A DNA stretch of 14,041 nucleotides from Gemmatimonadota bacterium (GCA_031372565.1 JANMLN010000069.1:1-14041), one strand, 5' to 3'. Shown: positions 1 to 14,041, numbered from the stretch's first letter. The notes: generated from the sequence alone by a model not told the origin. Made by a program: numbers and translations.

Positions 1-141
1 TGGGGCCGACCACGGTATCGAGGGTGCCGGTGATGGCGTGGTAGCGATAGCTCGTGAGGCCGAGGGTGGCCCCGGGCGCGGAGGCACTCACGCCGGTGCG
101 CCGCCCCTCCAGGTCGTAGCTGTGGTCGACGCTCCCCGTCG
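1..141 (-). repeat. Left copy of a 141-bp perfect terminal inverted repeat (rhs core sequence)
   Basis: 1-141 is the exact reverse complement of 13901-14041; identity stops at 142 vs 13900. Confidence 0.97.
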
Positions 142-166
142 GTGGGCGTGGCGCCAAGAGAGTCAT
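1..166 (-). CDS. Partial, N-terminally truncated (orphan-like) Rhs/YD-repeat ORF running off the left edge
   Basis: ATG at 166, 6 nt after the gspD stop. Reads MTLLAPRPP-TGSVDHSYDLEGRRTGVSASAPGATLGLTSYRYHAITGTLDTVVGP, in the same frame as and identical to the end of the Rhs ORF on the right. No well-spaced SD (AGGAGGAG is ~15 nt upstream, inside gspD). Confidence 0.45.
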   Translation of the reverse strand, partial: MTLLAPRPPTGSVDHSYDLEGRRTGVSASAPGATLGLTSYRYHAITGTLDTVVGP

Positions 167-172
167 CCCGGC

Positions 173-1666
173 CTACTTCGGCTCCTCCTTCCGGCGCGCC
201 TCGGTCTGCCGATCTGCATCGGCGTCCGTCCGCAGGATCCGCGGCGTGATGAAGATGAAGAGCTCCGACGCCGTGGCCGTGCGCGACGACCGACCGAAGA
301 GCGCTCCCAATAGCGGGATGCTCGACAGGAACGGCACTCCGCCGCCGCGCGTCTCTCGTTGCTGATCGGTCAGCCCGCCCAGAATCACGGTCTGCGAGTC
401 GCGCATCAGCAGCTTGGTCTGGACGGAGCGCGTCGAGATGATGGGCGCGTCGAACTGGGTCTCGGCGGTGGCGTTGTTGACGTCCTGTGTGACCTCCAGC
501 GTCACGTAGCCGTTGGTGTTGATGGTAGGGCGCACGGTGAGCGTCGTGCCCACATCCTTGTACTGCACCACTTGGTCGCGCTGTGGCTGGCTCGTGGGGA
601 GTGAGCGCGAAACCTGCACGAACGGCCGCTGGCTCCCCACGTTGATCACCGCCTTCTCGTTGTTGGTGGCCAGCAGCACGGGCCGACTGATGATGACCGC
701 ATCACCACGAGCGGCCGAGGCGCGCAGTGTGGCCGTGATGTCCTCGCCGCCAATGCGCATCACCTTGAGCAAGAGGTCGCCCAATCCGATCCCGTCGCTC
801 GACCCGCTGATCACTGTGCCCTGAACTCCCACGGTGCGCGGACCCGCCTCTACCCCGACACCGAAGGAGAGACTCCGGTCCTTCCTCACCTCCACAATGT
901 GCACCTCGATGAGCACCTGCAAGGGACGAAGGTCGAGCTCCTGGACCGCTGCCATGATCAGCTCGTAGTCCGTGCGCGCTGCCCGCACCAGCAGGCTGTT
1001 GGTGCTCGGATCCGGAACGATGGTCACATCCCCGCCAAAGGACGCCACCCGCCCGCCACTCACCGACGGTGTCGTTACGGGAGTGTTGGGGGGAGGAGCT
1101 TGCGCCTGCTGGATCTGTTCCGACAGTGGCGCCGCGCGCGCGCCCAGCTCGCCGAGCGCAGCGGCGCGACCATACAGGGCGTTGACCGTCGCCGACACGT
1201 CGGCCGCGCGCGCATGCCGCAGCCGAATGACGAACAGTTCCGGCGCGCCCGTCGACCCCGCGCGACTGCCGTTTGGCCCGGCGCTCGATCCGGCCAGCGG
1301 ACGCATGTCGCGCATCCGGATCCGCCACGTGCCACTCGAATCCGCGATCAGCTCGTGGTTCTGGCTTTCCAGCAGTGAGCGCAGGAGCGGCACCACATCG
1401 CGCCGAGCGATGGGCAGCGGTGTTGCGATCGACACGCGCCCACCCGGCAGGTTCCCAAAGAGCAGCGGACGGTCCAGATACTGTGCCAGCGCCTGCACCG
1501 CCGCGCGCAGGTCGGCGTCGGCCAGCTGCACGCGCAACGAGTCGGGCCCCGCCGCCGCGACCAAGGGTTGGGCGGTCAGCGATCCGCCGCCTTGAGCGAA
1601 CGCGGATGAAGCGCTGAGCATCGCTGTCGCGAAGAGCGAGGACCACCGCAACACGTGGCGCTTCAT
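173..1666 (-). CDS. gspD: T2SS outer-membrane secretin (short form, 497 aa)
   Basis: Sec signal MKRHVLRWSSLFATAMLSASSAFA|Q; N0-like segment (LADADLRAAVQAL); one Secretin_N repeat (IRLRHARAADV...PDPSTNSLLV); QVLIEVHIVEV; secretin signature GGVPFLSSIPLLGALF...LFIFITPRI. ATG at 1666 overlaps the upstream TGA (ATGA). Confidence 0.93.
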   Translation of the reverse strand: MKRHVLRWSSLFATAMLSASSAFAQGGGSLTAQPLVAAAGPDSLRVQLADADLRAAVQALAQYLDRPLLFGNLPGGRVSIATPLPIARRDVVPLLRSLLESQNHELIADSSGTWRIRMRDMRPLAGSSAGPNGSRAGSTGAPELFVIRLRHARAADVSATVNALYGRAAALGELGARAAPLSEQIQQAQAPPPNTPVTTPSVSGGRVASFGGDVTIVPDPSTNSLLVRAARTDYELIMAAVQELDLRPLQVLIEVHIVEVRKDRSLSFGVGVEAGPRTVGVQGTVISGSSDGIGLGDLLLKVMRIGGEDITATLRASAARGDAVIISRPVLLATNNEKAVINVGSQRPFVQVSRSLPTSQPQRDQVVQYKDVGTTLTVRPTINTNGYVTLEVTQDVNNATAETQFDAPIISTRSVQTKLLMRDSQTVILGGLTDQQRETRGGGVPFLSSIPLLGALFGRSSRTATASELFIFITPRILRTDADADRQTEARRKEEPK

Positions 1667-2166
1667 GGAGTGGGCTCCGGTCGGAGTCGCAGCGCCCACG
1701 CAGTATCCCGCCCCACCACGCGCACCAGGTTGTCGCCAATCTCCGACACACGGAGCCCCGACGCCTCGGTTCCCACGAGCACCACCTTCCCCATTGCCCC
1801 TCCGGGCCAGTTCTCGATGACGGCACTCCATGGCGGCCCTCCGATGATGCCCACCAGGCGAAGCGCCGGGAGCGACTCACGTGGGCGTTCGACGGCGGCC
1901 GGTTCTGCCTCAGTGGCGTCGTCGCGCGCGTCGCTTGCTGTATCGTCGGACCCCACGAAGGGGTTGCGCGACGCGAGCGCCTCTAGCCAGTGCTTGGTCG
2001 AGTCCTGCGAGGCGTTCATCGGAGGCGCGCTCGTGCGGACGGCACTGCTCGCTGGCCGTCCCTGCGCCGCCGACATGGTCAGGGCCCCGAGGGCCACCAC
2101 GCAGCCGACGGCCACGGTCCACGCCGCGCGTTCCATTCGCAGCAACGCCGCGCCAAGGGCCCTCAC
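1663..2166 (-). CDS. GspC/GspN-like inner-membrane T2SS component (167 aa, no PDZ domain)
   Basis: N-terminal hydrophobic helix (AWTVAVGCVVALGAL), low-complexity linker with RNPF, and a beta-rich end LRLVGIIGGPPWSAVIE...GLRVSEIGDNLVRV resembling the GspC HR domain. Lies between gspM and gspD; GTG at 2166 overlaps the gspM stop (GTGA). Confidence 0.65.
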   Translation of the reverse strand: MRALGAALLRMERAAWTVAVGCVVALGALTMSAAQGRPASSAVRTSAPPMNASQDSTKHWLEALASRNPFVGSDDTASDARDDATEAEPAAVERPRESLPALRLVGIIGGPPWSAVIENWPGGAMGKVVLVGTEASGLRVSEIGDNLVRVVGRDTAWALRLRPEPTP

Positions 2167-2723
2167 GCGCCCTCCCGTGAGGACGCGCGATAGGCGGCCG
2201 CAACGTCCAGTGTCGCGCGCAGCTGGGTGTCCGCCTGCACGCTGTCGGTGCGCTCCGCGCGCTCGAGATGATACCGCACAATACGGAGCGGGCCCGCCTC
2301 GGCATCCCACCGATGCAGTAAAGACAACTGCTCGTGCCAGGTCCCACGCAGCACCAGACGCACGGTGACAACACCACGTGCCGCCCCGGGGCCGCCCACC
2401 AGCTGCGCGCCGACCCAGGTGAGGCCAACACTCTCGGCCGCACCGCGAGCGAGCTCGCGAAGATGGAGCGCCGCCGTCGCACGCGTCGAGTCCTCTAGAA
2501 CGAGGCTGGTGGCAGTCGCGTTGCTTGCGGAGGCACCCGCAGCAAGCCGCTCGGCCTTGGCCTCGACAAGCGCCAAGCGGTCAATGGCGTTGCGCTCCGC
2601 CTCGCGCGCCGCCTCGACCGCGTGCCACCAGGCCGACGTGCCGCGGAGTACCAGCGTAAGCGCAATCACCACCGCCCCGATCGCGACCGCTCGGCGCTCA
2701 CGCGGACTCCATCGCTCGATCAC
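2163..2723 (-). CDS. gspM: T2SS assembly-platform protein M (GspM/PilO-like, 186 aa)
   Basis: WSPRERR followed by a TM helix, a coiled coil, and a ferredoxin-like end (VRLVLRGTWHEQLSLLHRWD). GTGA overlap with gspL. Confidence 0.78.
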   Translation of the reverse strand: MIERWSPRERRAVAIGAVVIALTLVLRGTSAWWHAVEAAREAERNAIDRLALVEAKAERLAAGASASNATATSLVLEDSTRATAALHLRELARGAAESVGLTWVGAQLVGGPGAARGVVTVRLVLRGTWHEQLSLLHRWDAEAGPLRIVRYHLERAERTDSVQADTQLRATLDVAAAYRASSREGA

Positions 2724-3757
2724 GGTGCCGCTCGGGCGATGCGCGTGAGCCGCACGGCATGGCGCGCCGTCTCACCGGCGCTCGCCGACTCGTAGTCGAG
2801 CTGTCCACCGATGTCAGGGGGTGCGAAACCGCGGAGTCGGCCCAGCGTCGACACGACTGTATACGCGTCCTGCGTCGACACGGTCAGCGAGACGCCGCCC
2901 GAGTCCCACGCGAATGATTCCATGGCATCGTCGGGCGCGAGCGCTTGGGCAACGCGCGCGAGATCATAGGTCAGTCGACCGGGATCGGGAAGCGATGCGG
3001 GGCCTACCTGCGCGCGCAGAGGAGCTCGGCGACGCGCGGCCGACTCCTGCGCCGCAAGGATCGCGTCCGCGCGACGTTCGGCGCGCCACGCCGCCAGCCG
3101 AGGCAGCGCCACGGGCGCGACGAGCATCGCGCATACCGCAACGAGGGCCACGACTGCGGCCGTGAGCGCGCGGGCACGGCCCGCGACCTCCCAACTGGTC
3201 ACATGTCGCGGCGAGATCGTGGGACACTCCGGAAACGCACGTACCGACGCGTCGGCGACGCGTTCGATCGCCTCTTTACTCGCGGAACACGCCGCCAACG
3301 CCGGCATCGCGTCAAGCGGCACGATCGCGCAGAGCCAGCGCCCCGAGCGCCGGACCGCCTGCGCCAGCGGGAGGCAGAGTTCCTGATCGGCCAGCGCAAC
3401 GCGCGGGGGGCCGGGGCTGTTCGCCACGGCGCCCCCTACCACCAGGGCGGCGGACGGGGCGATGACGAAGCGCGCCGGATTCGCGCGCACAATGTCGCCG
3501 TACAGCGAGGGCGGAGTCAGCTCAGGGACCCCCTCAACGGCGACTGTGCGGCACCACGGCGACGGTAACACCGCGACGAGAGCGCGATGCGCGCGCCGAT
3601 CGGGAAGCGCCTGCATTGCCGCGACCCATGCGTCACGGAGCTCGACGGGCGAGCTGAGCGGGCGAGCCGCACCGAGTGGCTGAACGCGACCCTCTGCCAG
3701 CAGCCAGGTGCTGCCATCCGTGAGCGTGGCGAGGATGCTCGGCGGCTCGGCTACCAT
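2720..3757 (-). CDS. gspL: T2SS assembly-platform protein L (GspL/PilN-like, 345 aa, divergent)
   Basis: Cytoplasmic N-region, single TM (ALTAAVVALVAVCAMLVAPVAL), PilN-like periplasmic part (LARVAQALAPDDAMESFAWDSGGVSL). Lies between gspK and gspM; ATG at 3757 overlaps the gspK TAG. Assignment rests mainly on position and topology. Confidence 0.68.
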   Translation of the reverse strand: MVAEPPSILATLTDGSTWLLAEGRVQPLGAARPLSSPVELRDAWVAAMQALPDRRAHRALVAVLPSPWCRTVAVEGVPELTPPSLYGDIVRANPARFVIAPSAALVVGGAVANSPGPPRVALADQELCLPLAQAVRRSGRWLCAIVPLDAMPALAACSASKEAIERVADASVRAFPECPTISPRHVTSWEVAGRARALTAAVVALVAVCAMLVAPVALPRLAAWRAERRADAILAAQESAARRRAPLRAQVGPASLPDPGRLTYDLARVAQALAPDDAMESFAWDSGGVSLTVSTQDAYTVVSTLGRLRGFAPPDIGGQLDYESASAGETARHAVRLTRIARAAP

Positions 3758-4626
3758 GCAATCGCCCGCTGGCTGACGGCTGGGCGTTGTCCGGCGCGCG
3801 CAAGCCGCAGGCGAAGGACCGCCTGTGGCTTGCGCGTCGGCGGGGACAACACGACCACATCCCACGCGTCGGGCGACCACGTTGCGTGCGTCGCCAACCA
3901 CACGGACGCCTCGCGCAGCGAGTCACGCGCCGCCGCCGAGATGCCCTCCATCACGCGCGCCCAATCGGCCAAGTCGGTTGCCTGCCGCGCGCCGACGATC
4001 GCATGTGCTGTCTCGGGCGTCACACCGCGCAGCGCCAGAAGCACGGCAAGCGGCGCGTGGCGCAGGGAGACACGGGCCGAGTCCACCCCGACCAATGGCG
4101 TAGTAGCGTTGAACCGGCTCCAGCCGCGTACGGCGGCCAACTCCGCCGCATGACGGACAGGCGCATTTGACGGAGGAAGCAGCTGTCTGCCACCGTACCA
4201 CGACCACTCGGCGCCGCTCGCGCGCGCCACGGTGTCGGCGTCTTCCCAGTCGAGCAGGGCGTCCGCGAGCGAATCGCCACACGCCCCACTGCCGCACATC
4301 GCGCGGGTCAGACGCCGAAGGACCACCTCGTCGCGGTAGCGAGTCGTCCACGTTCTCCCCACCGGTACAAGGGAGACGCTGCAAGCGGGATCGATCCCGT
4401 GCGTGTCCGCGAGATCGTACCGCTCCCATCCGCTCGACTCGAGGCGCGCCAGCATGGCCGCCGCGCACCCTTCGGCCGTCCAGGTGGCGCGCACCAGCGC
4501 TCGGCGATTGATCCCGCTGCGCACGGTATCGCGCTCGATCAGGAAGGCGGCCGCCGTCGTGACGGATACGAGCGCCACAACGCCAAGGACCGCGATGAGC
4601 GCAAAGCCCGTCGGCGCGCGCCTCAT
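3751..4626 (-). CDS. gspK: T2SS minor pseudopilin K (291 aa)
   Basis: MRRAPTG|FALIAVL (prepilin site without E5, typical of GspK); LADALLDWEDAD; PSNAPVRHAAELAAVRG; VSLRHAPLAVLLALRGV. ATGA overlap with gspJ. Confidence 0.9.
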   Translation of the reverse strand: MRRAPTGFALIAVLGVVALVSVTTAAAFLIERDTVRSGINRRALVRATWTAEGCAAAMLARLESSGWERYDLADTHGIDPACSVSLVPVGRTWTTRYRDEVVLRRLTRAMCGSGACGDSLADALLDWEDADTVARASGAEWSWYGGRQLLPPSNAPVRHAAELAAVRGWSRFNATTPLVGVDSARVSLRHAPLAVLLALRGVTPETAHAIVGARQATDLADWARVMEGISAAARDSLREASVWLATHATWSPDAWDVVVLSPPTRKPQAVLRLRLARAGQRPAVSQRAIAW

Positions 4627-5171
4627 CGCGCGACGCCAATCGCGAGGAAGATCGCCGCGCTGTCGCCAACAGCCTCGATAGCCAACGGCGGATGCAAGCT
4701 GGGCTCCCATCGGGATGTCCACTCGCCGCCGCCCGCCCCGGAGCGCAGGAATCGAAGGCGCCCCGAGGACCCTAAGGGGAGTTGGGCGACACTGGCGCCC
4801 GCCACCTGAGCCACGAGCGCGGCGGCTCGCGTTGCGGGGTCTATGTCGACGCGAAGCACCACCTCACAGGGCACGTCCCCGCCCATCGCGTCGTCGCACC
4901 GCGACGCGAAGCGCGCCTCCACATCGGTCGCGCGGAAGTCGGCGACCGCCAGCGAATCCGCGTGGGCGCGCTGCGTCAGCAGGCGTACGGTCCAGTAGCT
5001 CGCGGCCGCGGCACCCACCGCCGCTGCGCCGCGGCTGACCCGCGACGCGCCATCGTCCGCCACACGCCAAAAGGCATGCGCCCATACGAGCAGGAGGGCG
5101 GCCACCGAGAGCGCGAGCATCAGCTCCAGGAGCGTCATCCCGCGCCGGCAAAGAGCGGAGCTAGCGCGCAT
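4623..5171 (-). CDS. gspJ: T2SS minor pseudopilin J (182 aa)
   Basis: RRG|MTLLELMLAL prepilin motif; C-terminal WTSRW...PPLAIE; GAGG 6 nt before ATG 5171 (alternative ATG 5177); lies just before gspK. Confidence 0.8.
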   Translation of the reverse strand: MRASSALCRRGMTLLELMLALSVAALLLVWAHAFWRVADDGASRVSRGAAAVGAAAASYWTVRLLTQRAHADSLAVADFRATDVEARFASRCDDAMGGDVPCEVVLRVDIDPATRAAALVAQVAGASVAQLPLGSSGRLRFLRSGAGGGEWTSRWEPSLHPPLAIEAVGDSAAIFLAIGVAR

Positions 5172-5550
5172 GGTCATCCTCGACCGGCCGATACACGGTG
5201 GTCTCGAGGAGAACGCGCGTGCGCCCACTATCGACCAACGAGAGCCGGTAGAGTCTCGGCATGGACCGGGTGACGCGCAGGCGATAGGGGCCTTGCTCCC
5301 GCTCGCCAAGGCGCGCATCCAGTTCGACTCGTGACCACAGGCGCACCTTGCTCAGGAACTGGTCCGCCTGTCGCAGCTCGGCGTCGTCGCGACGCACGCG
5401 GTCCAGAACGCCCAGTGCCTCCCGAAGTTGCACGACGAGCGACACGCCGGCGATCGCCAGAATGACGGTGGCGATCAGGCATTCGAGCAGCGCCAGCCCT
5501 GGCCGACCACGCCGTGGCGCGCAGGCGTCGCAGCGTCGGCGCGCGTTCAC
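5161..5550 (-). CDS. gspI: T2SS minor pseudopilin I (129 aa)
   Basis: RRGRPG|LALLECLIATVILAIAG prepilin-like N-terminus; small size; lies between H and J; GTGA overlap. Confidence 0.78.
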   Translation of the reverse strand: MNARRRCDACAPRRGRPGLALLECLIATVILAIAGVSLVVQLREALGVLDRVRRDDAELRQADQFLSKVRLWSRVELDARLGEREQGPYRLRVTRSMPRLYRLSLVDSGRTRVLLETTVYRPVEDDHAR

Positions 5551-5852
5551 GGTGCCGCCATCGGAGCCGTCGCAACTCGACGAGCCGCGGGCTGAAAAGC
5601 GGCCATCATCACGCGCCCATCCGGCGTGGCGCTGACCGCGACGCCTGAGTCGCCCGCGACCACAAACCGCGTGACGCGCGCGCCGGTCGTGACGGCGTCG
5701 TGGCGTGCGCCACGTGCAGCGACCTCTGGCGAAATCCGCCGTGCGCGATCATCCCCGACACGCGGAAGCGACAGCCCCGCCACCGACGCCACTGTGCCCA
5801 GCACAAGGAGCACGACGAGGAGCTCCAACAGCGTGACGCCGCGACGCGTCAT
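5547..5852 (-). CDS. gspH: T2SS minor pseudopilin H-like (101 aa, short)
   Basis: MTRRG|VTLLELLVVLLVLG; ARHDAVTTG resembles the GspH/FimT AR..A...G motif; ATGA overlap with gspF. Confidence 0.78.
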   Translation of the reverse strand: MTRRGVTLLELLVVLLVLGTVASVAGLSLPRVGDDRARRISPEVAARGARHDAVTTGARVTRFVVAGDSGVAVSATPDGRVMMAAFQPAARRVATAPMAAP

Positions 5853-7039
5853 GTTGGCCGCACCGCATACAGTGCCTGTAACAGCGCGGCGGCCACGAGC
5901 GCAATCGTGCCGCCAAAGCCGAGGACCACCACGGGTTCGACAAGCCGTGTGATGGTCCGCGTCCGCGCGACGGCGTCGGCGGACGCCAATGCTCCGCCGC
6001 GGCGGAGTGCGGCAGGCAGCGTGCCCGCCTCCTCCCCGGCACGGGCAAGCCGGGTGACCATCGGACTGAGCGCGTCCGCTTCATGGAGGGCGCGCGATAT
6101 CGAGCGCCCGTCGCGGACCATGTCGGCCGCAGCACGGAACCGCCCGCCGATCGCTGCATCGCCAGCCGCGTCGGCGGCCGTGCGGAGCGCCATGCCGGCT
6201 CCGGCCCCGACCTCAAGCATCATGGCGAGTGCGCGCGCGCTGCGACTCGTAGCCGCCGCGAGCCGAACGGGTCCAATGAGCGGTACCCGCAGCAGCGCCG
6301 CATGCGCGGTCGTGCGGGCCCCCGGCATGCGCCACCACGCGATCAGGGCTGCACTCGCGATGACGGCGAGCACCGCGCCAGGGACGGCAAGCGACGACAG
6401 GATGTGCGCGCCTGCCAGCACGAGAGCGGTCGAACGCGGAAGCGCCTGCCCCAATTCGTCCAGCAGCACCGCAAACCGCGGTAACACGACGGCGATCAAG
6501 AAGCCGAGCGAGGCGCTTCCTGCCACCACGAGCAACGTCGGGTACGCCAACGCGCTCCGCAGCGCCGACCGGAGCTCCTGCGTCTCCTCAAGGTCGGTGG
6601 CGGCGTCACGCAGGCCGTCGGCCAGTCGGCCGGCGGCTTCACCAGCACGCAGTATGCCGAGCGACGACGCGGTCATGCCGGTCCGCTGCGCCGCAAGCGC
6701 GGCTGCGAGGGGGCGACCACCCTCAACGTCGCTCTGTAGTCCTGGGAGCAAGGCGCGCCACCCTGACGGCGCCACGTCGCGAAGGGTTGCGAGCACCTGC
6801 CGCATGGGGAGCCCCGCCCCGATCAGGTCGGACAGGCTGCGGAGGCCGAGCGCCGCATCGCGAAGCGAGGCTTCCTGACCGCGCACTCGCAGAGGCGTGC
6901 GCGCCGAGACCGCGATGACGTGAAGCCCTCGCTCCGCCAGCGCGCCCACCGCCGCTGCCTGCGACGCGGCGTCAACGTGCCCGCGCAACCGAGCGCCCGT
7001 ACTGTCGACGGCCTGGTACCGAAAGGTCGCGAGGCTCAC
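5849..7039 (-). CDS. gspF: T2SS inner-membrane platform protein F (396 aa)
   Basis: FRYQAVDSTGARLRG; two T2SSF repeats (LSDLIGAGLP...AGEAAGRL...ALAYP and LAMMLEVG...AGEEAGTL...LVEP); three TM segments. GTG at 7039 overlaps the gspG stop. Confidence 0.93.
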   Translation of the reverse strand: MSLATFRYQAVDSTGARLRGHVDAASQAAAVGALAERGLHVIAVSARTPLRVRGQEASLRDAALGLRSLSDLIGAGLPMRQVLATLRDVAPSGWRALLPGLQSDVEGGRPLAAALAAQRTGMTASSLGILRAGEAAGRLADGLRDAATDLEETQELRSALRSALAYPTLLVVAGSASLGFLIAVVLPRFAVLLDELGQALPRSTALVLAGAHILSSLAVPGAVLAVIASAALIAWWRMPGARTTAHAALLRVPLIGPVRLAAATSRSARALAMMLEVGAGAGMALRTAADAAGDAAIGGRFRAAADMVRDGRSISRALHEADALSPMVTRLARAGEEAGTLPAALRRGGALASADAVARTRTITRLVEPVVVLGFGGTIALVAAALLQALYAVRPT

Positions 7040-7485
7040 GGGAGCACCGGCCCGCCCCACGAGGTGATGTCGGCATCTTCGCCGCTGCCCCCGGGCTTGC
7101 CGTCGCGGCCAAGCGAGAACAGTTCGAAGGGGTTCGCTTGCTCACCGGTCAGGACCCGATACTGATAGGCATGCCCCCAAGGGTCGGGCGGCACGGGGCG
7201 TCGCAAGTACGGTCCCCGCCAGTTGCGCGGAGCTGGGACCGCCGTCGGGCGCTCGCGCAGCGCGTCGAGCCCCTGCTCGACCGATGGGTAGCCATCGTTG
7301 TCCAGTCGATAGCTGTCGAGCGCCAGACTCAACATCTCGATCTGTGAGCGCGCCGCCTGCACCTTCGCGTCGCCGGCGTTGCGGAAGAGATCGGGCCCGA
7401 CGAGCGCACCCAGCGTCGCGATGATCGCGAGCACCACGAGCAACTCGATCAGGGTGAAAGCGCGCCGCTCAGCCTTCCAGGACAC
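7036..7485 (-). CDS. gspG: T2SS major pseudopilin G (149 aa)
   Basis: RRA|FTLIELLVVLAII; ALDSYRLDNDGYPSVEQGLDAL; WRGPYL...DPWGHAYQY; SLGRDGKPGGSGEDADI. SD GAGGAGG 6 nt before GTG 7485. Confidence 0.96.
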   Translation of the reverse strand: MSWKAERRAFTLIELLVVLAIIATLGALVGPDLFRNAGDAKVQAARSQIEMLSLALDSYRLDNDGYPSVEQGLDALRERPTAVPAPRNWRGPYLRRPVPPDPWGHAYQYRVLTGEQANPFELFSLGRDGKPGGSGEDADITSWGGPVLP

Positions 7486-8929
7486 GCAACACCTCCTCAA
7501 CCGTCGTCAGGCCGGCCTCCACCTTGCGCCATCCGTCGCGACGCAGCGAGCTGCCGCCGCCATCGGCTTCCAATGCCTGCCGGAGCGCGATGCGCGTGGC
7601 CCCCCGTGTGGCGGCATCGCGCAGTGCGTCGGTCATCGTCACCACTTCGAACAGCCCGATGCGCCCGCGATATCCGGTGCCACGACAGCGCGCACAGCCG
7701 GCACCACGCAGCAGGGTGCGATGTCCCACGGGTCGCTCCGAGAGCGCTGCCACGACGTCCGCTCGTGGGGAGTAGGCCGTCCGGCAGTCGTCACACACCC
7801 GACGCACCAGCCGCTGCGCGACGATGCCCTCGACCGTGGCCGCCACGAGGTACGGGGGAATGCCCAGATCGACCAATCGTGGGAGTGCCCCGAGCGCGTC
7901 GGTGGTATGCAGGGTCGAGAACACGACATGCCCCGTCATGGCCGCCTGCATGGCCATCTCGGCGGTCTCGACGTCACGCATCTCCCCGATCATCATGACA
8001 TCGGGGTCCTGGCGCAGGATCGAGCGCAGCGCCGAGGCGAAGGTCACGCCGGCCTCGCGATCCACGGGGACCTGCGTCACCCCCGGCAACTGGAACTCCA
8101 CCGGGTCTTCCACCGTGACAATCTTCTCCCGCGCCGGGTCCCGCTCGCCAAGGGCCGCGTACAGGGTGGTGCTTTTGCCCGAGCCGGTGGGCCCGGTGAC
8201 CAGCAGCAGGCCATGGGCGCGACCGGCGAGTCGCTGCACCACGCGCAAGTCGTCGGCGCCAAGGCCGAGCTCCTCGAGCGTGATCGCTCGCCCGCCGTGT
8301 GCGAGCAAGCGCATGACGACGCTCTCGCCGTGCATCGTGGGGAGGGTGGAGAGTCGCACGTCGAGTTCGCGCGCGGCAAGGCGCACGCGGATCCGCCCAT
8401 CCTGCGGGCGGCGACGTTCGGCGATGTCGCGCCCGGCCATGAGCTTGATGCGGCTGATGACGGCCTCCTCCATGCCGGTCGGCGGCGCCGGGGCCGGGAC
8501 CAGCACGCCATCCACACGAAAACGGGCATCGACCCCGGCTGCATGCGATTCGAGGTGGATGTCACTGGCCCCGGCGTCCACGGCTTCACGGAGCAGCAGG
8601 TTCACGTAGCGAACGACCGGTGCGCCATTGGCGAGGTCACGCAGGTCCGCCGTGCGTTCGGGCAGACTCTCGTCGTGCTCGTTGGCGTGCGCCCCTTCCG
8701 ACAGCAGGCACAGTCGCTCGATTGCCTGCGCCACCTCGTCGGCGGGCGCGGGCTCAAGGCGGAGTGGCGCCTCGTAGGCGCGCGCCAGCTCGGACAGGTC
8801 GGCCACGAGCGCGTTGGGCCCGGTCAAGACCACCACCTCGCCGTCGGTCCCGAGTCGGACGGGCGCGATGCTGCGGTGGAGCAGATAGTCGCGTCGGACG
8901 CCGGGCGCGAGCGGGAGGAGCTGATGCAC
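7469..8929 (-). CDS. gspE: T2SS secretion ATPase E (~486 aa)
   Basis: ASDIH, PQDGRI, Walker A GPTGSGKST, TVEDPVE, LRQDPDVMMIGEMRD, GHVVFSTLHT, tetra-Cys CDDC...CARC. Start is uncertain: GTG 8929 chosen because TTG 8962 and GTG 8959 lie upstream of the predicted sigma-54 transcription start (~8953). Confidence 0.95.
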   Translation of the reverse strand: MHQLLPLAPGVRRDYLLHRSIAPVRLGTDGEVVVLTGPNALVADLSELARAYEAPLRLEPAPADEVAQAIERLCLLSEGAHANEHDESLPERTADLRDLANGAPVVRYVNLLLREAVDAGASDIHLESHAAGVDARFRVDGVLVPAPAPPTGMEEAVISRIKLMAGRDIAERRRPQDGRIRVRLAARELDVRLSTLPTMHGESVVMRLLAHGGRAITLEELGLGADDLRVVQRLAGRAHGLLLVTGPTGSGKSTTLYAALGERDPAREKIVTVEDPVEFQLPGVTQVPVDREAGVTFASALRSILRQDPDVMMIGEMRDVETAEMAMQAAMTGHVVFSTLHTTDALGALPRLVDLGIPPYLVAATVEGIVAQRLVRRVCDDCRTAYSPRADVVAALSERPVGHRTLLRGAGCARCRGTGYRGRIGLFEVVTMTDALRDAATRGATRIALRQALEADGGGSSLRRDGWRKVEAGLTTVEEVLRVLEG

Positions 8930-8963
8930 GGAGAGCCGCAGGTGAGGGGATGCCCTCACCAAG

Positions 8964-8979
8964 AGCAGATTCCATGCCG
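8964..8979 (-). promoter_or_regulatory. Putative sigma-54 (-24/-12) promoter of the gsp operon
   Basis: Minus strand CGGCATGGAATCTGCT = GG-N10-GC, close to TGGCACG-N4-TTGCW; directly upstream of gspE and next to a bEBP gene. Confidence 0.7.
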
Positions 8980-9006
8980 TGCGGCTTACGCCTCTATGCT
9001 GATGTT

Positions 9007-9019
9007 CGGCAACGGGTTA
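9007..9019. promoter_or_regulatory. Possible IHF site between enhancer and gsp promoter
   Basis: cggCAAcgggTTA matches the CAA-N4-TTR core of WATCAANNNNTTR; same distance from the GG as the copy at 10226-10238. Confidence 0.35.
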
Positions 9020-9044
9020 CGGCGTTTCGCTGACCGAGCGCAAC

Positions 9045-9088
9045 GTCACCCAAGCGCGCAGGTGACATCGCCGCGCAGTTCAGGTGAC
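9045..9088 (-). promoter_or_regulatory. Putative upstream activator sequence (bEBP binding site) for the gsp promoter
   Basis: Palindrome GTCACC-N10-GGTGAC (9045-9066) plus a third half-site at 9083-9088; 9042-9073 matches 10186-10217 at 25/32 positions. Confidence 0.6.
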
Positions 9089-10020
9089 GGCGTCCTGACC
9101 AGCGCGAACCGTCGCTCAAGCCGATGCAGGTGCTGGCGCGTGATGCCCAGCGCCCTGGCCGCACTGGCCTTCGTTTCGTGTGCCTCGAGCGCGCGCGCGA
9201 CGTCGTCGCGCGCGACCGCGCCAGCGACGCGGCGCATGCCAGCGGGCAGCTGCCGTGCACAGAATCCGTCCTCGAGGTGTCGGGGCAGCAAGGTCGTGTC
9301 TGGGCTCAGGGCCAAGAACTGACAGGTATTCCAGAGGTCCCACACATTGCCTGGCCACTCCGCCTCGAGCAGCAGCCGCGCCAGGGGCGGGCTGATCTCC
9401 CATTCCGTCGCGCGCCCGCGCATGCGCGCCAGCCGCGCCAGGAAGTGCGTCGCGAGAGCGAGAATCTCTTCGGATCGCTCGCGCAGAGGCGGCACGCGGA
9501 TTTCTGTTGAGCCAATGCGCGCCAGCAGGTCCGTCCGCATCGTGCCCGCGGCGGATCGCGCCGTGAGGTCTTCGTTCGTGGCGAACACGAAACGCGTATC
9601 GACGCTGCGCTCGCGCGGTTCGCCCATGCGCCGATACGCATTGCGTCCGAGGATGCCGAGCAGGATCGTCTGGATGCGCGTGCTCGCGAGTTGGATCTCG
9701 TCGAGCAGCAGCGTGCCGCCCCGTGCGAAATCGAGCCAACCGCTCGCGTCGGCGTCAGCGCCGGTGAAGCTCCCGCGTCGGTGACCACAAAGCTGGCTGA
9801 GCGCGAGCTCATCGTTGAGCGCCGGGAGCTCGCCGACGACGAGGTCGCCCGTGCGCCCTGAGAGATCATGCAGGACGCGGGCCAGGCTTGTCTTGCCCAC
9901 GCCAGGCTCCCCCATGAGCACGACGCGGACCTCCGAGCGAGCGACGTAGCTCAGCTTGTCGAGCACGCGCCGAGTAGCTGGCGACGTGCCGGGCCAAAGA
10001 ACATTCGACGAGAGCAGCAT
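9046..10020 (-). CDS. Sigma-54-dependent enhancer-binding AAA+ regulator with Fis-type HTH and no N-terminal sensor domain (PspF/HrpR-like architecture)
   Basis: GEPGVGKT Walker A, GHRRGSFTGA loop, GGTLLLDEI Walker B, RTDLLARI, VPPLRER, WPGN, C-terminal KASAARALGITRQHLHR HTH. Start ATG 10020 or 10053. Confidence 0.92.
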   Translation of the reverse strand: MLLSSNVLWPGTSPATRRVLDKLSYVARSEVRVVLMGEPGVGKTSLARVLHDLSGRTGDLVVGELPALNDELALSQLCGHRRGSFTGADADASGWLDFARGGTLLLDEIQLASTRIQTILLGILGRNAYRRMGEPRERSVDTRFVFATNEDLTARSAAGTMRTDLLARIGSTEIRVPPLRERSEEILALATHFLARLARMRGRATEWEISPPLARLLLEAEWPGNVWDLWNTCQFLALSPDTTLLPRHLEDGFCARQLPAGMRRVAGAVARDDVARALEAHETKASAARALGITRQHLHRLERRFALVRTPSPELRGDVTCALG

Positions 10021-10166
10021 GGCAGTGCACGTACGGGAGCACCCATGCGGCATCGAACGCCGTTGTCCGATGCGCGCGCGCTAGTTCCGATTTTCTCGTG
10101 GATAGGAATGAAAACAACGACGTTTCGGATGTCCATAGGCCGCTTGCCCTATGCCTCCGATGTGGC

Positions 10167-10210
10167 GTCACCGCACAAGCGACTGAACGTCACCTTCGGC
10201 CACAGGTTAC
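10167..10210 (+). promoter_or_regulatory. Putative upstream activator sequence for the rhs promoter
   Basis: GTCACC(10167)-N16-GTCACC(10189)-N10-GGTTAC(10205): same spacing as 9088-9045 read in promoter orientation. Confidence 0.6.
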
Positions 10211-10225
10211 ATCGCCGTCGACCGG

Positions 10226-10238
10226 TAACCGATTGAAG
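10226..10238. promoter_or_regulatory. Possible IHF site between enhancer and rhs promoter
   Basis: Reverse complement ctTCAAtcggTTA matches 7 of 9 specified positions of WATCAANNNNTTR. Confidence 0.4.
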
Positions 10239-10265
10239 GAGAACGAGTTGTGAATCGCAATCTGG

Positions 10266-10281
10266 TGGCACGCGACCTGCC
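10266..10281 (+). promoter_or_regulatory. Putative sigma-54 (-24/-12) promoter of the small-gene/rhs operon
   Basis: TGGCACGCGACCTGCC: perfect TGGCACG -24 box with GG-N10-GC spacing. Confidence 0.78.
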
Positions 10282-10372
10282 CCACGGTGATGCGTGCGTA
10301 ACGAGGCCGGCCTACTTGTGCCGGAGTCGTGACGCCCCAGTTCGCCTACCCCCCCACGACCTGAGGCGCACC

Positions 10373-10717
10373 ATGACCGTGATGTCGTCGCGCACTTGTG
10401 CGATTCTGACAGTAGTCTCGCTCGCTCTCGCGGCCACGGCCGCGCACGTTGGGGCGCAGCAGTCCACCGGCCTCACCATCCGCAACGAGCGCACGGTGCC
10501 GGTGACCATCGAGATTGGCGTGGACACGGGCGCTGGATGCAAGCTGCCCAAGGTGTTGACCGCCACCGACGTGCCGGCAGGGGGCGCCTACCGCCTCACC
10601 ACCTCGCGCGGGTTCTGCTGGCGGCGGCAGGCCACGCCGGGGCAGAAGGACGGCAAGTGGGCGGCGTGGGCCACGGAGCGCAAGACGGATGATCGGTCGG
10701 TTGAGGTGAAGCCGTGA
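10373..10717 (+). CDS. Small exported hypothetical protein (114 aa, Sec signal, beta-rich, two Cys in the mature part)
   Basis: GAGG 6 nt before ATG 10373; MTVMSSRTCAILTVVSLALAATAAHVGA|QQST signal; strong GC3 bias; stop overlaps the rhs GTG (GTGA). Confidence 0.82.
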   Translation: MTVMSSRTCAILTVVSLALAATAAHVGAQQSTGLTIRNERTVPVTIEIGVDTGAGCKLPKVLTATDVPAGGAYRLTTSRGFCWRRQATPGQKDGKWAAWATERKTDDRSVEVKP

Positions 10718-13700
10718 GCACCCGCTTGCTGTCCAGGCTCGCGGGGCTCGCGCTCGCCGCCGCGACCTTCGGCGGCACGCCGGTCGTGGCGCAGTCTCCG
10801 ATGGTCAAGATCACACCAACCTCGCGCGTGGTGCTTGGGCAACCCACGATCACCGTCACGATCGCGTGGTGCTCGTATCAAGCCGGGCCTGAGTATCAGC
10901 TGATCTTCGACGATCGCGTGGTTCGCGTCAACGGGGTGGTCGTGCAGGACTACGATCCCCAGTGGGACCCTGAAGCGTGCAACCACACGGGTTACTTGGC
11001 CGACCAGTCGTACTGGACCACCAAGGTGGACGTTCCGGTTGACACCGGCGGCATTGCTGGAGTTTATGCGTACGCCACGACCTTGTGGAACTTCGCCGCG
11101 TCTGCGTACGAGCAGTACCCTGGTCCCCTAAAGCGCTGGTATACCGGATCGGTGGTTGCCGAGGCGCCGTACCAGCAAGTACACCCCGGAAGCAGCACGA
11201 CCCACTTTGTGTACACCTACGGCGACAACCCGGGGAACGAATCGGGGCTAAGTCCATCCTGTACGGGCGCTGTGTCGAACTGCTCGCTCGGAACGACGAC
11301 CTGGCTGGTGCCGAACAAGGTCGCACGCATCCCGCTGACGTACACGGCCGCCGCGAGTGGCACGGGAACGATCCAGTGGGGGAACGCCCGCGTGGATGTC
11401 GTGGTGCTGCCCACAGGGCCTGCGACCGGGAGCGTCACGATCGTGAGCGCGAGTCCGGGAGCCAACGGCTACTGGGATCGCGGCCAATGCGTCACGGCCG
11501 CGCTCGGTGAGGGGGCCGCGGTCGAATGCGGCAACCTCCGCCTCGCGCACTCGTTGCCCGGGGTACGAACCTTGGGGAAGACGCGAGCGCCCACGCTGCT
11601 GTACCTCTCGTCGACCGCGCACCAGAAGCCCATCATTCAGGCCGACGTGGCGCTGCCCACCACCTGGGGCAGCGTGCCCGCCACGGTCCAGGCCTGCATC
11701 ATGTTGGGCAGCACCCCGCGCGGTTGCACGAGCTATAGCGGTAGCGACTGGGGCGCACTGGGACGCGTGCGCCGCATTGCGGTCGCGGGTGACGACGGCT
11801 TCTGGCCAACCGGCGTGACTGCCTTCGACCTCCAGATCTCCGCCTCGGGTGCGCTGGCAATGGCAGCGGTGGCGGGAGAGCTGGTCACCGTCAACCGAGC
11901 CAAGAGTCCCTTCGGGTCGGGGTGGTGGCTGGCCGGAATGAGCCAGCTGGTCCCAGCATCCGGCGGGCGTCGACTCATCGTCGGCGGTGACGGATCCGCA
12001 CGACTGTACTCGACGGCGGGGCTCGCGAACAACCCCACGCGGCCGGATACACTGGATTGCTCTGGTGCGCAGTGCATCCAAAGACTCCCGGACAATGTGC
12101 GCGTGGCGTTCGACAAGGTCACGGGATTCCACATGTCCACCACCGACCGCGACGGCTTCGTCACCTCGTTCACATACGACGGTGACGGCTGCCCCACGGG
12201 CATCGTGGTGCCCACGCCAACGGCGACGCTCAACTACCAATTGACGTGCGCGTCGAAGCGCGTCGTGAGCGTTCGAGCTCCCGGGTTGAACGGCAATGAT
12301 GCCACGCGAACCGTCCAGATCGCGTATCAGGTGATGCCCAACGACACCAGCGGCCGCGTTGTGATGATTACGGACCCAGACGGCACCAACATCGGCTTCG
12401 GCTTCGACGCGGCGTATCAGCGGCTCGTGATTTCCCGACGCAACCAGTTGAACAAGGTGACAAGCTTCGGCTATGGCCCCGGACTGATCGTCGCGAATGC
12501 TACCCGACCGCTCGGCATTGTCACCACCATTCAGGCATCCGAGAATCGTGGCCTCTACGGCGCACAGGTGCTCGGCAACGTCTACACCCGCATTGACGGG
12601 CCGCGCAGCGACGTCGCCGACTACACCACCTTCTACGTGAATGCCTACGGCGCCCCAACCCGCATCCAGGACGCCGCTGGAAATGTCACGGCGCTCCGCT
12701 ACTCCAGCCTCTGGCCGGGACTCGTAGACTCGGTGCGCTCGCCCACGGGGGTCGTGAGCCGAGCCAAGTACAACGCGCGCGGGCTCGTCGACACCCTCCG
12801 CGTCATCAATGCGAATGGCGCCAACGAAGTGGCGACCACGGCGTATAGCTGGCACGGCACGTGGAGTATCCCCATTGCGGTCCGTTCCCCGCTCGGGCTC
12901 TACGACTCCACGGCAGTGAATGCCGCGACGGGCAAGATTCAGTGGACGCAGCGCGGCCTCAGTGCATCGCGACGGTCCCGCTTCTGGTACGACGTCACCG
13001 GCAAGCGGCTCGATTCGACCGCCACCCCCATGGGGGCGGTGACCCGCTACGGCTACGACGCCTTGGGCAATGTGAGCGCCGTCACAGACCCCAAGGGGAT
13101 TCCGTCGTACAGCTATGGAGATGCGATCGGGCGGGACACCCTGACAGTGGCCTCGCGCGACACCACGGCCACCAACCCCACCTCCGTGCTGGCGACCGGT
13201 AATCGCACCCGCACCTACTATTCGGTCATGAGCCGCGTTGACTCAGCGCGAAGCTTTGGACCGAGCGTCACGGCGCCGGCCCTGCCGGGCGGGTCGCCGC
13301 GGACGCATACGGATTCCGCAATCATCGTGACCTCCACCTACGACGCGGTGGGACGCGTCACGCAGATCGGGCGCCGCTTCCTCAATGACCCGCGCAGCGC
13401 GGGGTGGGTGACGCTGCTCAACCAGACGGTCTACGACGACGCCGGTCGCACGACACAGGTGATCAGCCCGGAGGCGGGGAGCACCCTGTTCTACAAGGAT
13501 TTGGCCGGGAACGACACGGCCGTGGCGACGCCGCGGGGGACGCTCAAGTTCAAGGTGGACGCGCTCGGGCGCGTGACGCGCAAGGCGACGCCGCAGGTGA
13601 ACTTCCAGGTCCAGACCCCGTGGGTGAACCAACTGTTCGCCGTCAACTGGTTCCAGTTCCCGACGCGTGACAATCAGAGCGGCCTCTGCATTGCCAGCGA

Positions 13701-14041
13701 CACCGCGTTCTTCGAGTATGGACCCGGCGGCACGTTGACACGCGCCTCGAACGCGTGGGCGACCACGACGCGCACATACACGCCGGCCGGTGCGATCACG
13801 AACGAGACGCAGGCGCTGCGCAGCTACTTCACCTACGCCCCGCAACCCTGCGGCGGTGGTGATCGGCGCGCCGGGGCCTTGACGGACTGGGACTACGTCA
13901 CGACGGGGAGCGTCGACCACAGCTACGACCTGGAGGGGCGGCGCACCGGCGTGAGTGCCTCCGCGCCCGGGGCCACCCTCGGCCTCACGAGCTATCGCTA
14001 CCACGCCATCACCGGCACCCTCGATACCGTGGTCGGCCCCA
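10714..14041 (+). CDS. Rhs/YD-repeat protein with N-terminal Sec signal peptide (>=1109 aa, truncated at the window end)
   Basis: Translated by hand, no stop in 10714-14040. SD GAGGTG 5 nt before GTG; signal MSTRLLSRLAGLALAAATFGGTPVVA|Q; SPFGSGWWL motif; YD repeats TDRDGFVTSFTYD, YNARGLV, TRYGYDALGNVSAVTDPKG, TYDAVGRVTQI, VYDDAGRTTQV, DALGRVTR, SYDLEGRRTGV. Confidence 0.93.
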   Translation, partial: MSTRLLSRLAGLALAAATFGGTPVVAQSPMVKITPTSRVVLGQPTITVTIAWCSYQAGPEYQLIFDDRVVRVNGVVVQDYDPQWDPEACNHTGYLADQSYWTTKVDVPVDTGGIAGVYAYATTLWNFAASAYEQYPGPLKRWYTGSVVAEAPYQQVHPGSSTTHFVYTYGDNPGNESGLSPSCTGAVSNCSLGTTTWLVPNKVARIPLTYTAAASGTGTIQWGNARVDVVVLPTGPATGSVTIVSASPGANGYWDRGQCVTAALGEGAAVECGNLRLAHSLPGVRTLGKTRAPTLLYLSSTAHQKPIIQADVALPTTWGSVPATVQACIMLGSTPRGCTSYSGSDWGALGRVRRIAVAGDDGFWPTGVTAFDLQISASGALAMAAVAGELVTVNRAKSPFGSGWWLAGMSQLVPASGGRRLIVGGDGSARLYSTAGLANNPTRPDTLDCSGAQCIQRLPDNVRVAFDKVTGFHMSTTDRDGFVTSFTYDGDGCPTGIVVPTPTATLNYQLTCASKRVVSVRAPGLNGNDATRTVQIAYQVMPNDTSGRVVMITDPDGTNIGFGFDAAYQRLVISRRNQLNKVTSFGYGPGLIVANATRPLGIVTTIQASENRGLYGAQVLGNVYTRIDGPRSDVADYTTFYVNAYGAPTRIQDAAGNVTALRYSSLWPGLVDSVRSPTGVVSRAKYNARGLVDTLRVINANGANEVATTAYSWHGTWSIPIAVRSPLGLYDSTAVNAATGKIQWTQRGLSASRRSRFWYDVTGKRLDSTATPMGAVTRYGYDALGNVSAVTDPKGIPSYSYGDAIGRDTLTVASRDTTATNPTSVLATGNRTRTYYSVMSRVDSARSFGPSVTAPALPGGSPRTHTDSAIIVTSTYDAVGRVTQIGRRFLNDPRSAGWVTLLNQTVYDDAGRTTQVISPEAGSTLFYKDLAGNDTAVATPRGTLKFKVDALGRVTRKATPQVNFQVQTPWVNQLFAVNWFQFPTRDNQSGLCIASDTAFFEYGPGGTLTRASNAWATTTRTYTPAGAITNETQALRSYFTYAPQPCGGGDRRAGALTDWDYVTTGSVDHSYDLEGRRTGVSASAPGATLGLTSYRYHAITGTLDTVVGP
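13901..14041 (+). repeat. Right copy of the 141-bp perfect terminal inverted repeat
   Basis: Exact reverse complement of 1-141; lies inside the rhs coding sequence. Confidence 0.97.

Follow-up and report, generated by a model that had tools for sequence, protein, structure and literature searches.

Recurrent linkage of a distinct type II secretion operon to genes for Rhs proteins with signal-peptide-like N-termini in Gemmatimonadota

Introduction

Rhs toxins that carry a signal peptide are common in bacteria with two membranes, and to our knowledge little has been established about the way in which they pass the outer membrane. A stretch of 14,041 bp from Gemmatimonadota bacterium (GCA_031372565.1, JANMLN010000069.1; the whole of it is referred to as the window) raises this question, as it holds an operon for a type II secretion system (T2SS), a gene for a sigma-54 activator and a gene coding for an Rhs/YD protein with a signal-peptide-like N-terminus: could this T2SS be the route by which the Rhs protein leaves the cell? 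The answer favoured here, with a confidence slightly better than even, is that the operon codes for a sigma-54-controlled T2SS of a distinct Gemmatimonadota clade, which goes together genetically with Rhs toxins that carry a Sec signal and probably serves to take them through the outer membrane. The linkage between the T2SS and Rhs genes, which is found in four layouts, within one clade and throughout the phylum, is solid.

The window is the whole of contig C189 of a metagenome-assembled genome (MAG) of 4.44 Mb in 201 contigs (completeness 95.85%, contamination 2.01%). Its GC content is 65–73%, and its sequence was found in the freshwater-sediment metagenome runs X1–X3, with X1 and X2 as possible origins of the assembly.

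Linkage of the T2SS to Rhs genes

GspD relatives were found in 73 of 151 genomes of the family. Those at least 49% identical to GspD of the window were classed as type 1, together with two loci (G008:C105 and G056:C107) that gene order and the GspE tree place with them, while two partial GspD fragments (G058:C9 and G075:C81) were left out of the tally. Besides the window, this gives 33 type-1 loci in 150 family genomes. Their neighbours were tallied by hand from tblastn maps, Pfam matches of the flanking open reading frames (ORFs) and the genome-wide places of RhsN and PF05593 matches; a heuristic GC3 gene caller, which is poor on lower-GC loci such as L047, was used only to pick ORFs for Pfam. 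An RHS-repeat gene lies within 15 kb at 25 of the 33 loci, in more than 20 genera. Four of the others have no Rhs gene in the available sequence, and four are on contigs too short to be judged (G076:C247, G138:C382, G124:C21 and G142:C155). The neighbourhood search suggested in the initial annotation thus came out in favour of the association. A tally of 8 out of 36 based on tblastn only was discarded because the Rhs query from the window missed divergent RHS genes: at seven loci (L043, L046, L049, L061, L047, L058 and L042), RHS-repeat genes were found by Pfam/PF05593 after tblastn had missed them.

The genes are arranged in four layouts. The commonest has gspD, a gene for a bacterial enhancer-binding protein (bEBP) and rhs in this order on one strand; in the others, rhs is divergent from gspE (as in the window), lies upstream on the same strand, or is convergent on gspD. 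Two other T2SS gene orders exist in the family, and none of their 19 loci has an Rhs neighbour; no PF05593 place on these control loci is among the matches listed (150 of 319). The GspE phylogeny, also proposed earlier as a check, agrees with this. In a tree of 48 sequences (IQ-TREE), 22 Rhs-adjacent and 3 non-Rhs operons form one clade (ultrafast bootstrap 95, approximate likelihood ratio test 84), apart from two T2SS clades of 13 (97/97) and 6 (99/98) sequences that have no Rhs neighbours, and the other PilB-like ATPases of the window's own genome fall outside the T2SS clades. The recurrence of the layout across the phylum suggests that the machine is likely an exporter of the Rhs toxins.

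Seen from the Rhs side, the N-terminal half of the window Rhs has 62 places in 39 of the 151 family genomes, and PF05593 has matches in 52 of them. By hand tally, RHS/RhsN genes are present in 27 of the 29 genomes with a type-1 system versus 31 of the 122 without. The best 80 loci for the conserved Rhs N-terminal core (N-core) in public genomes are all from Gemmatimonadota, Longimicrobium included. Among the 34 of these that have at least 8 kb of upstream sequence, gsp genes are found in 13, a bEBP alone in 2 and neither in 19, for a chance expectation of ~1% for gsp genes. Full-length RhsN is present in three family genomes of 10 contigs or fewer (G029, G051 and G057), and each of these has a copy adjoining a type-1 operon.

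Sigma-54 activators and promoters

The activator encoded upstream of gspE is a bEBP of 335 residues with Walker motifs and a GSFTGA loop. Its AAA+ domain begins at residue 22, so that there is no N-terminal sensor or receiver domain. This places it among the sensor-less activators of the PspF/HrpR/HrpS type. The initial annotation had described the gsp operon and the Rhs gene as diverging around this activator. The Rhs gene does diverge, but the activator gene reads in the same direction as the gsp operon and does not form a separate divergent unit; nor is the Rhs gene itself the first one on its side, since a gene for a 114-residue exported protein intervenes, with its stop overlapping the Rhs start. 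The gene for sigma-54, rpoN, is on another contig of the same genome (C159).

Matching promoters had also been proposed for the two sides. The site on the Rhs side, TGGCACGCGACCTGC, is convincing: sites with one mismatch are rare genome-wide (0.025 per kb per strand), which makes its presence within a 320-nt spacer unlikely by chance. The gspE-proximal element, CGGCATGGAATCTGC, is by itself not above chance. Of 24 type-1 loci, 11 have a site with at most two mismatches in the 260 nt ahead of GspE; for the other T2SS types this holds for 2 of 19 loci (chance expectation ~0.07 per locus). The window belongs to the 13 type-1 loci that do not have it. As for the rhs genes of the relatives, whose starts were predicted by our own heuristic, sigma-54-like sites of this kind lie 38–67 nt before the predicted start of six of them. 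With the window counted, such a site precedes 7 of 12 T2SS-adjacent rhs genes versus 0 of 7 non-adjacent ones.

A quick tree of the bEBPs separates two orthologue groups at a branch with a support of 98, namely an 'up-gspE' group of 10 sequences, including that of the window, and a 'down-gspD' group of 22 plus one located elsewhere. It therefore looks as though the ancestral module had two paralogous activators of the sensor-less kind; the window contains the 'up-gspE' one and not the 'down-gspD' one.

The Rhs proteins

The Rhs gene of the window matches RHS/YD families and its first 1109 codons are present, the 3' part not being in the MAG. Its N-terminus, MSTRLLSRLAGLALAAATFGGTPVVAQS, is Sec-signal-like as judged by eye, so the signal-peptide Rhs of the initial annotation stands as to the family, with the signal given on that judgement. 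The relatives' N-termini are signal-peptide-like by a crude hydrophobicity rule. As the initial annotation had noted, no PAAR or other N-terminal export domain is found in the window Rhs with Pfam or NCBIfam. The own genome contains two more Rhs-type frames, on the short contigs C113 and C9.

Sixteen full-length homologues, of 1458–3310 residues, all have RHS repeats. According to Pfam, none of the 16 carries a PAAR, a VgrG-type or a known C-terminal sorting domain, which leaves no sign of the alternative C-terminal export signal that the initial annotation had considered; one has a Tlde1 C-terminus and two have extra Ig-like arrays. The motif PxxxxDPxGL, followed by 65–188 variable residues, is found in 16 of 19 Rhs frames, the exceptions being the window gene and the C9 frame, both cut by contig ends, and L074. 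Judged by these sequence features, the full-length homologues are classic polymorphic toxins. In the one with the Tlde1 (L,D-transpeptidase-type) end, encoded by the latter of a tandem pair of rhs genes that lies downstream of the T2SS (L078 4742–9295, G006:C11), this domain fits an antibacterial, cell-wall-directed role.

The N-core starts at around residue 250 and has two invariant cysteines, followed by the motifs SPFGxGWWLAG and IGGDGS. Its predicted model leads from a beta-sandwich into beta-strands with a middling mean pLDDT of 66.5. A Foldseek search of the PDB with this model gave no match at E <= 0.001, only weak ones to teneurin YD proteins (E about 5e-3), so that the modelled core weakly resembles a teneurin plug and the start of the shell. 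It could conceivably correspond to the 'inactive transglutaminase' domain of Zhang et al. Being common to T2SS-linked and unlinked copies, the N-core is not a T2SS-specific tag.

Two delivery routes known for YD-repeat toxins were considered and rejected. As to delivery by a type VI secretion system (T6SS), there is no PAAR in the protein, and neither PAAR (PF05488) nor TssC/VipB (PF05943) has a match in the own genome, which is 95.85% complete. For Tc-type ABC toxins, the window has no TcA/TcB-type domains by Pfam.

Export through the T2SS and its alternatives

An experimental precedent was missed in the initial annotation, which knew of no characterised example. Bcn-A of Xanthomonas perforans is an Rhs-family bacteriocin of 1398 residues that is active in the supernatant and inactive when it comes from an xpsD mutant (PMC7259588). 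Like the proteins discussed here, it is a large Rhs/YD protein of a two-membrane bacterium, antibacterial and dependent on a T2SS secretin. It differs in that it relies on the housekeeping Xps system, and the accessible part of that report describes no bcnA-linked gsp operon or sigma-54 activators; its accessory ORFs 2–4 have no counterpart in the window (PMC7259588). Export of Rhs via the T2SS of the window is plausible because of this precedent and because no other route is recognisable. One or both bEBPs would fire the sigma-54 promoters before gspE and rhs, and Sec would take the Rhs precursor to the periplasm, where the YD shell would fold around the C-terminal toxin. The GspG pseudopilus would then push the Rhs protein through the short GspD secretin to the surface or into the medium, and the toxin tip could act on neighbouring bacteria.

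Several points weigh against this, the first being that export itself is something we infer from sequence. A YD shell of ~200 kDa is near the size limit usually assumed for the secretin channel, and two N-domains are missing from the window secretin. GspG is the only protein to pass its curated NCBIfam cut-off, the Rhs signal peptide rests on judgement by eye, and CGGCATGGAATCTGC alone is no better than chance given a 3-mismatch background of 1.6 per kb per strand. As for the linkage, the 4 of 33 type-1 loci without Rhs in the available sequence are G026:C109, G069:C3, G143:C41 and G030:C8, and the genomes G030 and G069 carry a type-1 T2SS with no RHS match genome-wide; the related genomes are moreover not independent, so that counts such as 25 of 33 overstate the statistics. 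Conversely, of the 34 phylum-wide Rhs loci with a sufficient flank, 21 are without a gsp gene, and 9 family genomes, all of them MAGs of 80–390 contigs, have RhsN-type genes and no T2SSG match. Within the same genus, G117 has Rhs and no T2SS, and G058 keeps its Rhs genes with only gspD and the downstream bEBP left. Finally, the gsp operon of the window is the sole T2SS found in its genome and may therefore serve general secretion.

In G058 the remaining pair stands beside a convergent RHS frame of 1511 residues and genes for HipA and PP2C (L042, G058:C11); the rest of the gsp operon is absent, there is no T2SSG match in the genome, and the locus looks like a decay of the module within the genus. 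At another locus (L080), a weak T2SSG-like gene (E = 9.6e-6; G020:C24:311886-312140) follows an Rhs gene at a distance of 2.8 kb on the downstream side. No type-1 GspD was found in that genome, and the gene may be part of a more divergent pseudopilin cluster linked with Rhs.

These points bear most directly on the main rival, co-regulation without a cargo relation, in which a bEBP-controlled competition or stress regulon would span a general-purpose, enzyme-exporting T2SS as well as the Rhs genes, and the toxins would exit otherwise (by vesicles, lysis, an unknown outer-membrane partner or surface anchoring). It is in keeping with the gsp operon being the only T2SS of the genome, and with Rhs relatives often being away from gsp (21 of 34 loci), even in genomes without a T2SSG match. 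In many relatives each rhs also has its own bEBP and sigma-54-like site, and regulation alone could explain this pairing. Co-regulation does not, however, require the adjacency to gsp that is found in four layouts and more than 20 genera, it leaves the 0 of 19 Rhs neighbours for the two other T2SS clades of the family unaccounted for, and RHS genes are present in 27 of the 29 genomes with a type-1 system. We regard it as possible but rather doubtful.

The toxins could also be presented rather than released. Here a T2SS-like machine would build a surface pseudopilus or fibre that shows the Rhs protein to neighbours, with no soluble product. The unusually short secretin and the divergent set of minor pseudopilins would suit such a structure, as would the variable Ig-like arrays in N-terminal regions of the family, which are typical of surface proteins, and a review proposes a cell-surface location for the signal-peptide-bearing Rhs proteins of Myxococcus (PMC10433427). 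On the other hand, GspG is a standard T2SS major pseudopilin above the NCBIfam cut-off, and no sequence feature separates this contact-dependent variant from ordinary secretion. We consider it quite unlikely, and secretion of Rhs by the T2SS remains the preferred reading.

Relation to known systems

Accessory T2SSs encoded beside their substrate and regulator are known from Klebsiella (pulA/pulC-O with MalT) and Pseudomonas (Hxc with LapA, Txc with CbpE and TtsRS). As in the window, a gsp operon is accompanied by an adjacent, often divergent gene for the cognate cargo and by a shared dedicated regulator. The cargo of these systems is, however, an enzyme or a binding protein and not a polymorphic toxin, and their regulators are not sensor-less bEBPs. 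HrpR/HrpS and PspF, in turn, resemble the activators found here in being sigma-54 AAA+ activators that lack a regulatory domain at the N-terminus; they govern genes for secretion or the envelope, and the two paralogous activators that accompany one secretion cluster in the relatives parallel HrpR/HrpS. The HrpRS pair differs in acting on a type III secretion system through HrpL, and no HrpV- or PspA-like negative regulator was identified in the window.

With PAAR-Rhs effectors of the T6SS and with Tc toxins (TcB/TcC), the Rhs proteins share the YD-repeat shell, the PxxxxDPxGL autoproteolysis motif and the encapsulated variable tip. The window Rhs differs by its Sec-type N-terminal signal, and no PAAR, VgrG, TssC or TcA-type partner was found.

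A class of Rhs toxins with signal peptides was described by Zhang et al. in 2012 as 'T2SS/Sec-dependent', that is, as using a default pathway with no signature neighbourhood genes, and Gemmatimonadetes are among the phyla listed there for some toxin domains (PMC3482391). The proteins considered here have the signal peptide, RHS repeats and variable C-terminal toxin of that class. In the accessible text, the class is set by the signal peptide alone and contrasted with 'dedicated' systems, whereas here a specific gsp clade constitutes a neighbourhood signature (PMC3482391). Myxococcus xanthus Rhs4/5 bear a signal peptide and are T6SS-independent, with an unknown outer-membrane route; like Bacillus subtilis WapA, they are large toxins acting in kin discrimination or competition (PMC10433427). 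For neither does the accessible part of that review report a linked secretion operon, and Bacillus, with its one membrane, needs no outer-membrane route (PMC10433427).

A literature search that left most subscription journals and supplements outside its reach found no account of rhs genes linked with a gsp operon. An accessory T2SS with adjacent cognate cargo and regulator is an already known kind of system, and for an Rhs bacteriocin released in a T2SS-dependent way there is one experimental precedent. The apparent novelty lies in the conserved association of one T2SS clade with Rhs toxins and paired sensor-less bEBPs, with inverted rhs cassettes around it. This clade, the two sigma-54 activators and Rhs, travelling together, make a testable candidate for a dedicated Rhs export machine. 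The gsp-bEBP-rhs linkage offers a genomic signature for locating toxins of this sort, and an initial clue to the means by which Gemmatimonadota, which are abundant in soils and sediments, compete.

Gene content of the window

The features of the window are listed in Table 1. On the minus strand, matches to Pfam and NCBIfam bear out the gspE-to-gspD operon of the initial annotation, with the order gspE-G-F-H-I-J-K-L-M-C-D and few-base overlaps between most adjacent genes. As far as its sequence goes, the operon is a T2SS with an apparently full set of gsp genes, in which C and M are assigned on weak matches and L by position. The best NCBIfam matches of D, E, F, K, M and C are T2SS families, all below cut-off; for GspD it is TIGR02517, with 241 bits for a cut-off of 351. 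A GspG-type major pseudopilin is what distinguishes T2SSs from type IV pili, and reading the operon as a type IV pilus was rejected since GspG and GspK are T2SS-specific. The minor pseudopilins comprise a GspK domain and two ORFs with the N-methylation motif, the fourth being assigned by position and conservation. The start of gspE is ambiguous (GTG at 8929 or TTG at 8962), that of the gspL-like ORF overlaps the stop of gspK, and the gspC-like ORF ('orfN') keeps its position in the relatives according to tblastn. Neither the gspL-like nor the gspI-like ORF has a family match in Pfam or NCBIfam. GspD has a short architecture of N0, one N-domain and the secretin domain, and its frame length is ~485–550 residues in type-1 relatives versus ~560–840 in the other T2SS types of the family.

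The module is not strictly self-contained, as the initial annotation had proposed: the single prepilin peptidase (GspO/PilD) match to PF01478 is on contig C42, outside the gsp operon. The own genome further contains two secretins (the window gspD and a 704-residue frame on C106), five full-length PilB/GspE-type ATPases and one T2SSG-type pseudopilin gene, which is the window gspG.

Table 1 Features of the window, with positions counted from its first base
Feature	Position	Strand	Basis and remarks
rhs copy, 5'-truncated	1..166	-	ATG at 166-164, 6 nt past the gspD stop; runs off the contig
gspD	173..1666	-	497 residues, signal-peptide-like N-terminus; PF00263 4.4e-43, PF03958, weak PF21305
gspC-like ORF (weak)	1663..2136	-	NF041515 (GspC) 1.7e-6, far below cut-off
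gspM	2163..2723	-	NF040576 2.7e-10, PF04612 0.0037, both below cut-off
gspL-like ORF	2720..3757	-	Position only, between gspK and gspM
gspK, minor pseudopilin	3751..4626	-	PF21687 1.2e-8, NF037980 1.7e-12
gspJ-like prepilin-type protein	4623..5177	-	N_methyl motif PF07963; kept in relatives
gspI-like ORF	5161..5550	-	Position; conserved there by tblastn in most type-1 loci
gspH-like minor pseudopilin	5547..5852	-	PF07963; weak TIGR01708
gspF, inner-membrane platform	5849..7060	-	PF00482 1.4e-32; TIGR02120 213.7 bits, below cut-off
gspG, major pseudopilin	7036..7500	-	PF08334 3.4e-37; TIGR01710 160.8 bits (cut-off 88.85)
gspE, ATPase	7469..8929	-	PF00437 2.3e-123; TIGR02533 517 bits, below cut-off
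Weak sigma-54-like -24/-12 element CGGCATGGAATCTGC	8965..8979	-	3 mismatches; gspE-proximal
Sensor-less bEBP, 'up-gspE' orthologue group	9046..10053	-	PF00158 1.3e-39, GSFTGA, weak HTH_8 (0.0086)
Sigma-54 promoter-like site TGGCACGCGACCTGC	10266..10280	+	1 mismatch; 93 nt before the small ORF
114-residue exported protein	10373..10717	+	Precedes the Rhs gene; stop overlaps the Rhs start
Signal-peptide-like Rhs/YD gene	10714..14041	+	PF05593 2.5e-12, TIGR01643 4.8e-14; open at the contig end
Inverted repeat copy, inner edge at 13901	13901..14041	+	Equals the reverse complement of 1-141

The 114-residue exported protein has no Pfam or NCBIfam match. Among 150 family genomes it has six weak matches (that in G007 was not used), and it was rejected as a conserved partner of Rhs, since no homologue is found upstream of the rhs genes of 16 relatives or of the C113 and C9 frames. 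A copy with 30% identity (G036:C107:5773-6072) lies directly upstream of an Rhs gene.

Contig ends and rearranged rhs copies

Bases 1–141 of the window are the exact reverse complement of bases 13901–14041, and among the remaining contigs of the MAG none ends in this way or contains the repeat sequence. The repeat was checked in independent k=31 contigs of runs X2 and X3, the coverage of X1 and X4 being too low. In X2, a 369-nt piece with a depth of 11.5 ends exactly at base 141; one piece of ~5.5 depth continues from base 141 into the 3' end of gspD, and a second leads into sequence identical to the Rhs body. With both junctions present in the reads and the depth two-fold, the repeat is real and has two copies, and a pure assembly artefact was rejected on the same grounds. 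The contig ends are thus an inverted Rhs repeat, which places a 5'-truncated rhs ORF after gspD. After ten unique codons (MTLLAPRPPT), this ORF is identical to Rhs from codon ~1063. It has no signal peptide, and it occupies the place of the second bEBP and second rhs of the relatives. Since it has its own ATG just past the gspD stop, a signal-less Rhs C-terminal fragment could come from the gsp transcript.

Inverted Rhs repeats also end the contigs of two relatives, over 99 nt in L060 and in L050 with bases 1–126 being the reverse complement of 15324–15449. They probably explain the fragmentation of such loci in MAGs, with possible misses. Inverted repeats may also permit an inversion of the whole segment. 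The truncated ORF that follows gspD would serve as a reserve 3' cassette. We think it unlikely, though not far-fetched, that a T2SS clade has turned into a sigma-54-fired interbacterial weapon dedicated to Rhs, in which the operon lies between a full-length rhs gene and an inverted, 5'-truncated one, and recombination between the repeats flips the 13.8-kb segment and swaps the toxin tip reversibly; if true, a secretion machine would form the centre of a toxin switch of the inversion type.

A gene for a MobA/VirD2-type relaxase (L058 14960–16327) and one for a Mu-type transposase (L044 2315–3643) lie a few kb from type-1 operons, a hint that the module may move between genomes. These genes, together with the patchy presence of the T2SS within the genus and the rearranged, truncated rhs copies around the operon, are what one would expect if rhs recombination hot spots merely accumulated beside a T2SS island that is accessory, perhaps mobile, and functionally unconnected to them. 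Such hitch-hiking would not explain why the same T2SS clade keeps its Rhs neighbours in both Gemmatimonadaceae and Longimicrobium, why the neighbour is always Rhs and never other typical island cargo, or why the paired bEBPs and sigma-54-like sites are conserved alongside, and it appears very unlikely.

Two rhs paralogues of G057 (L071 2203–2331 and L085 4142–4258) contain a 12-nt tandem repeat in frame before the predicted signal peptide, present in 10.8 copies in one of them and in 9.8 copies in the second, possibly forming a leader of variable length.

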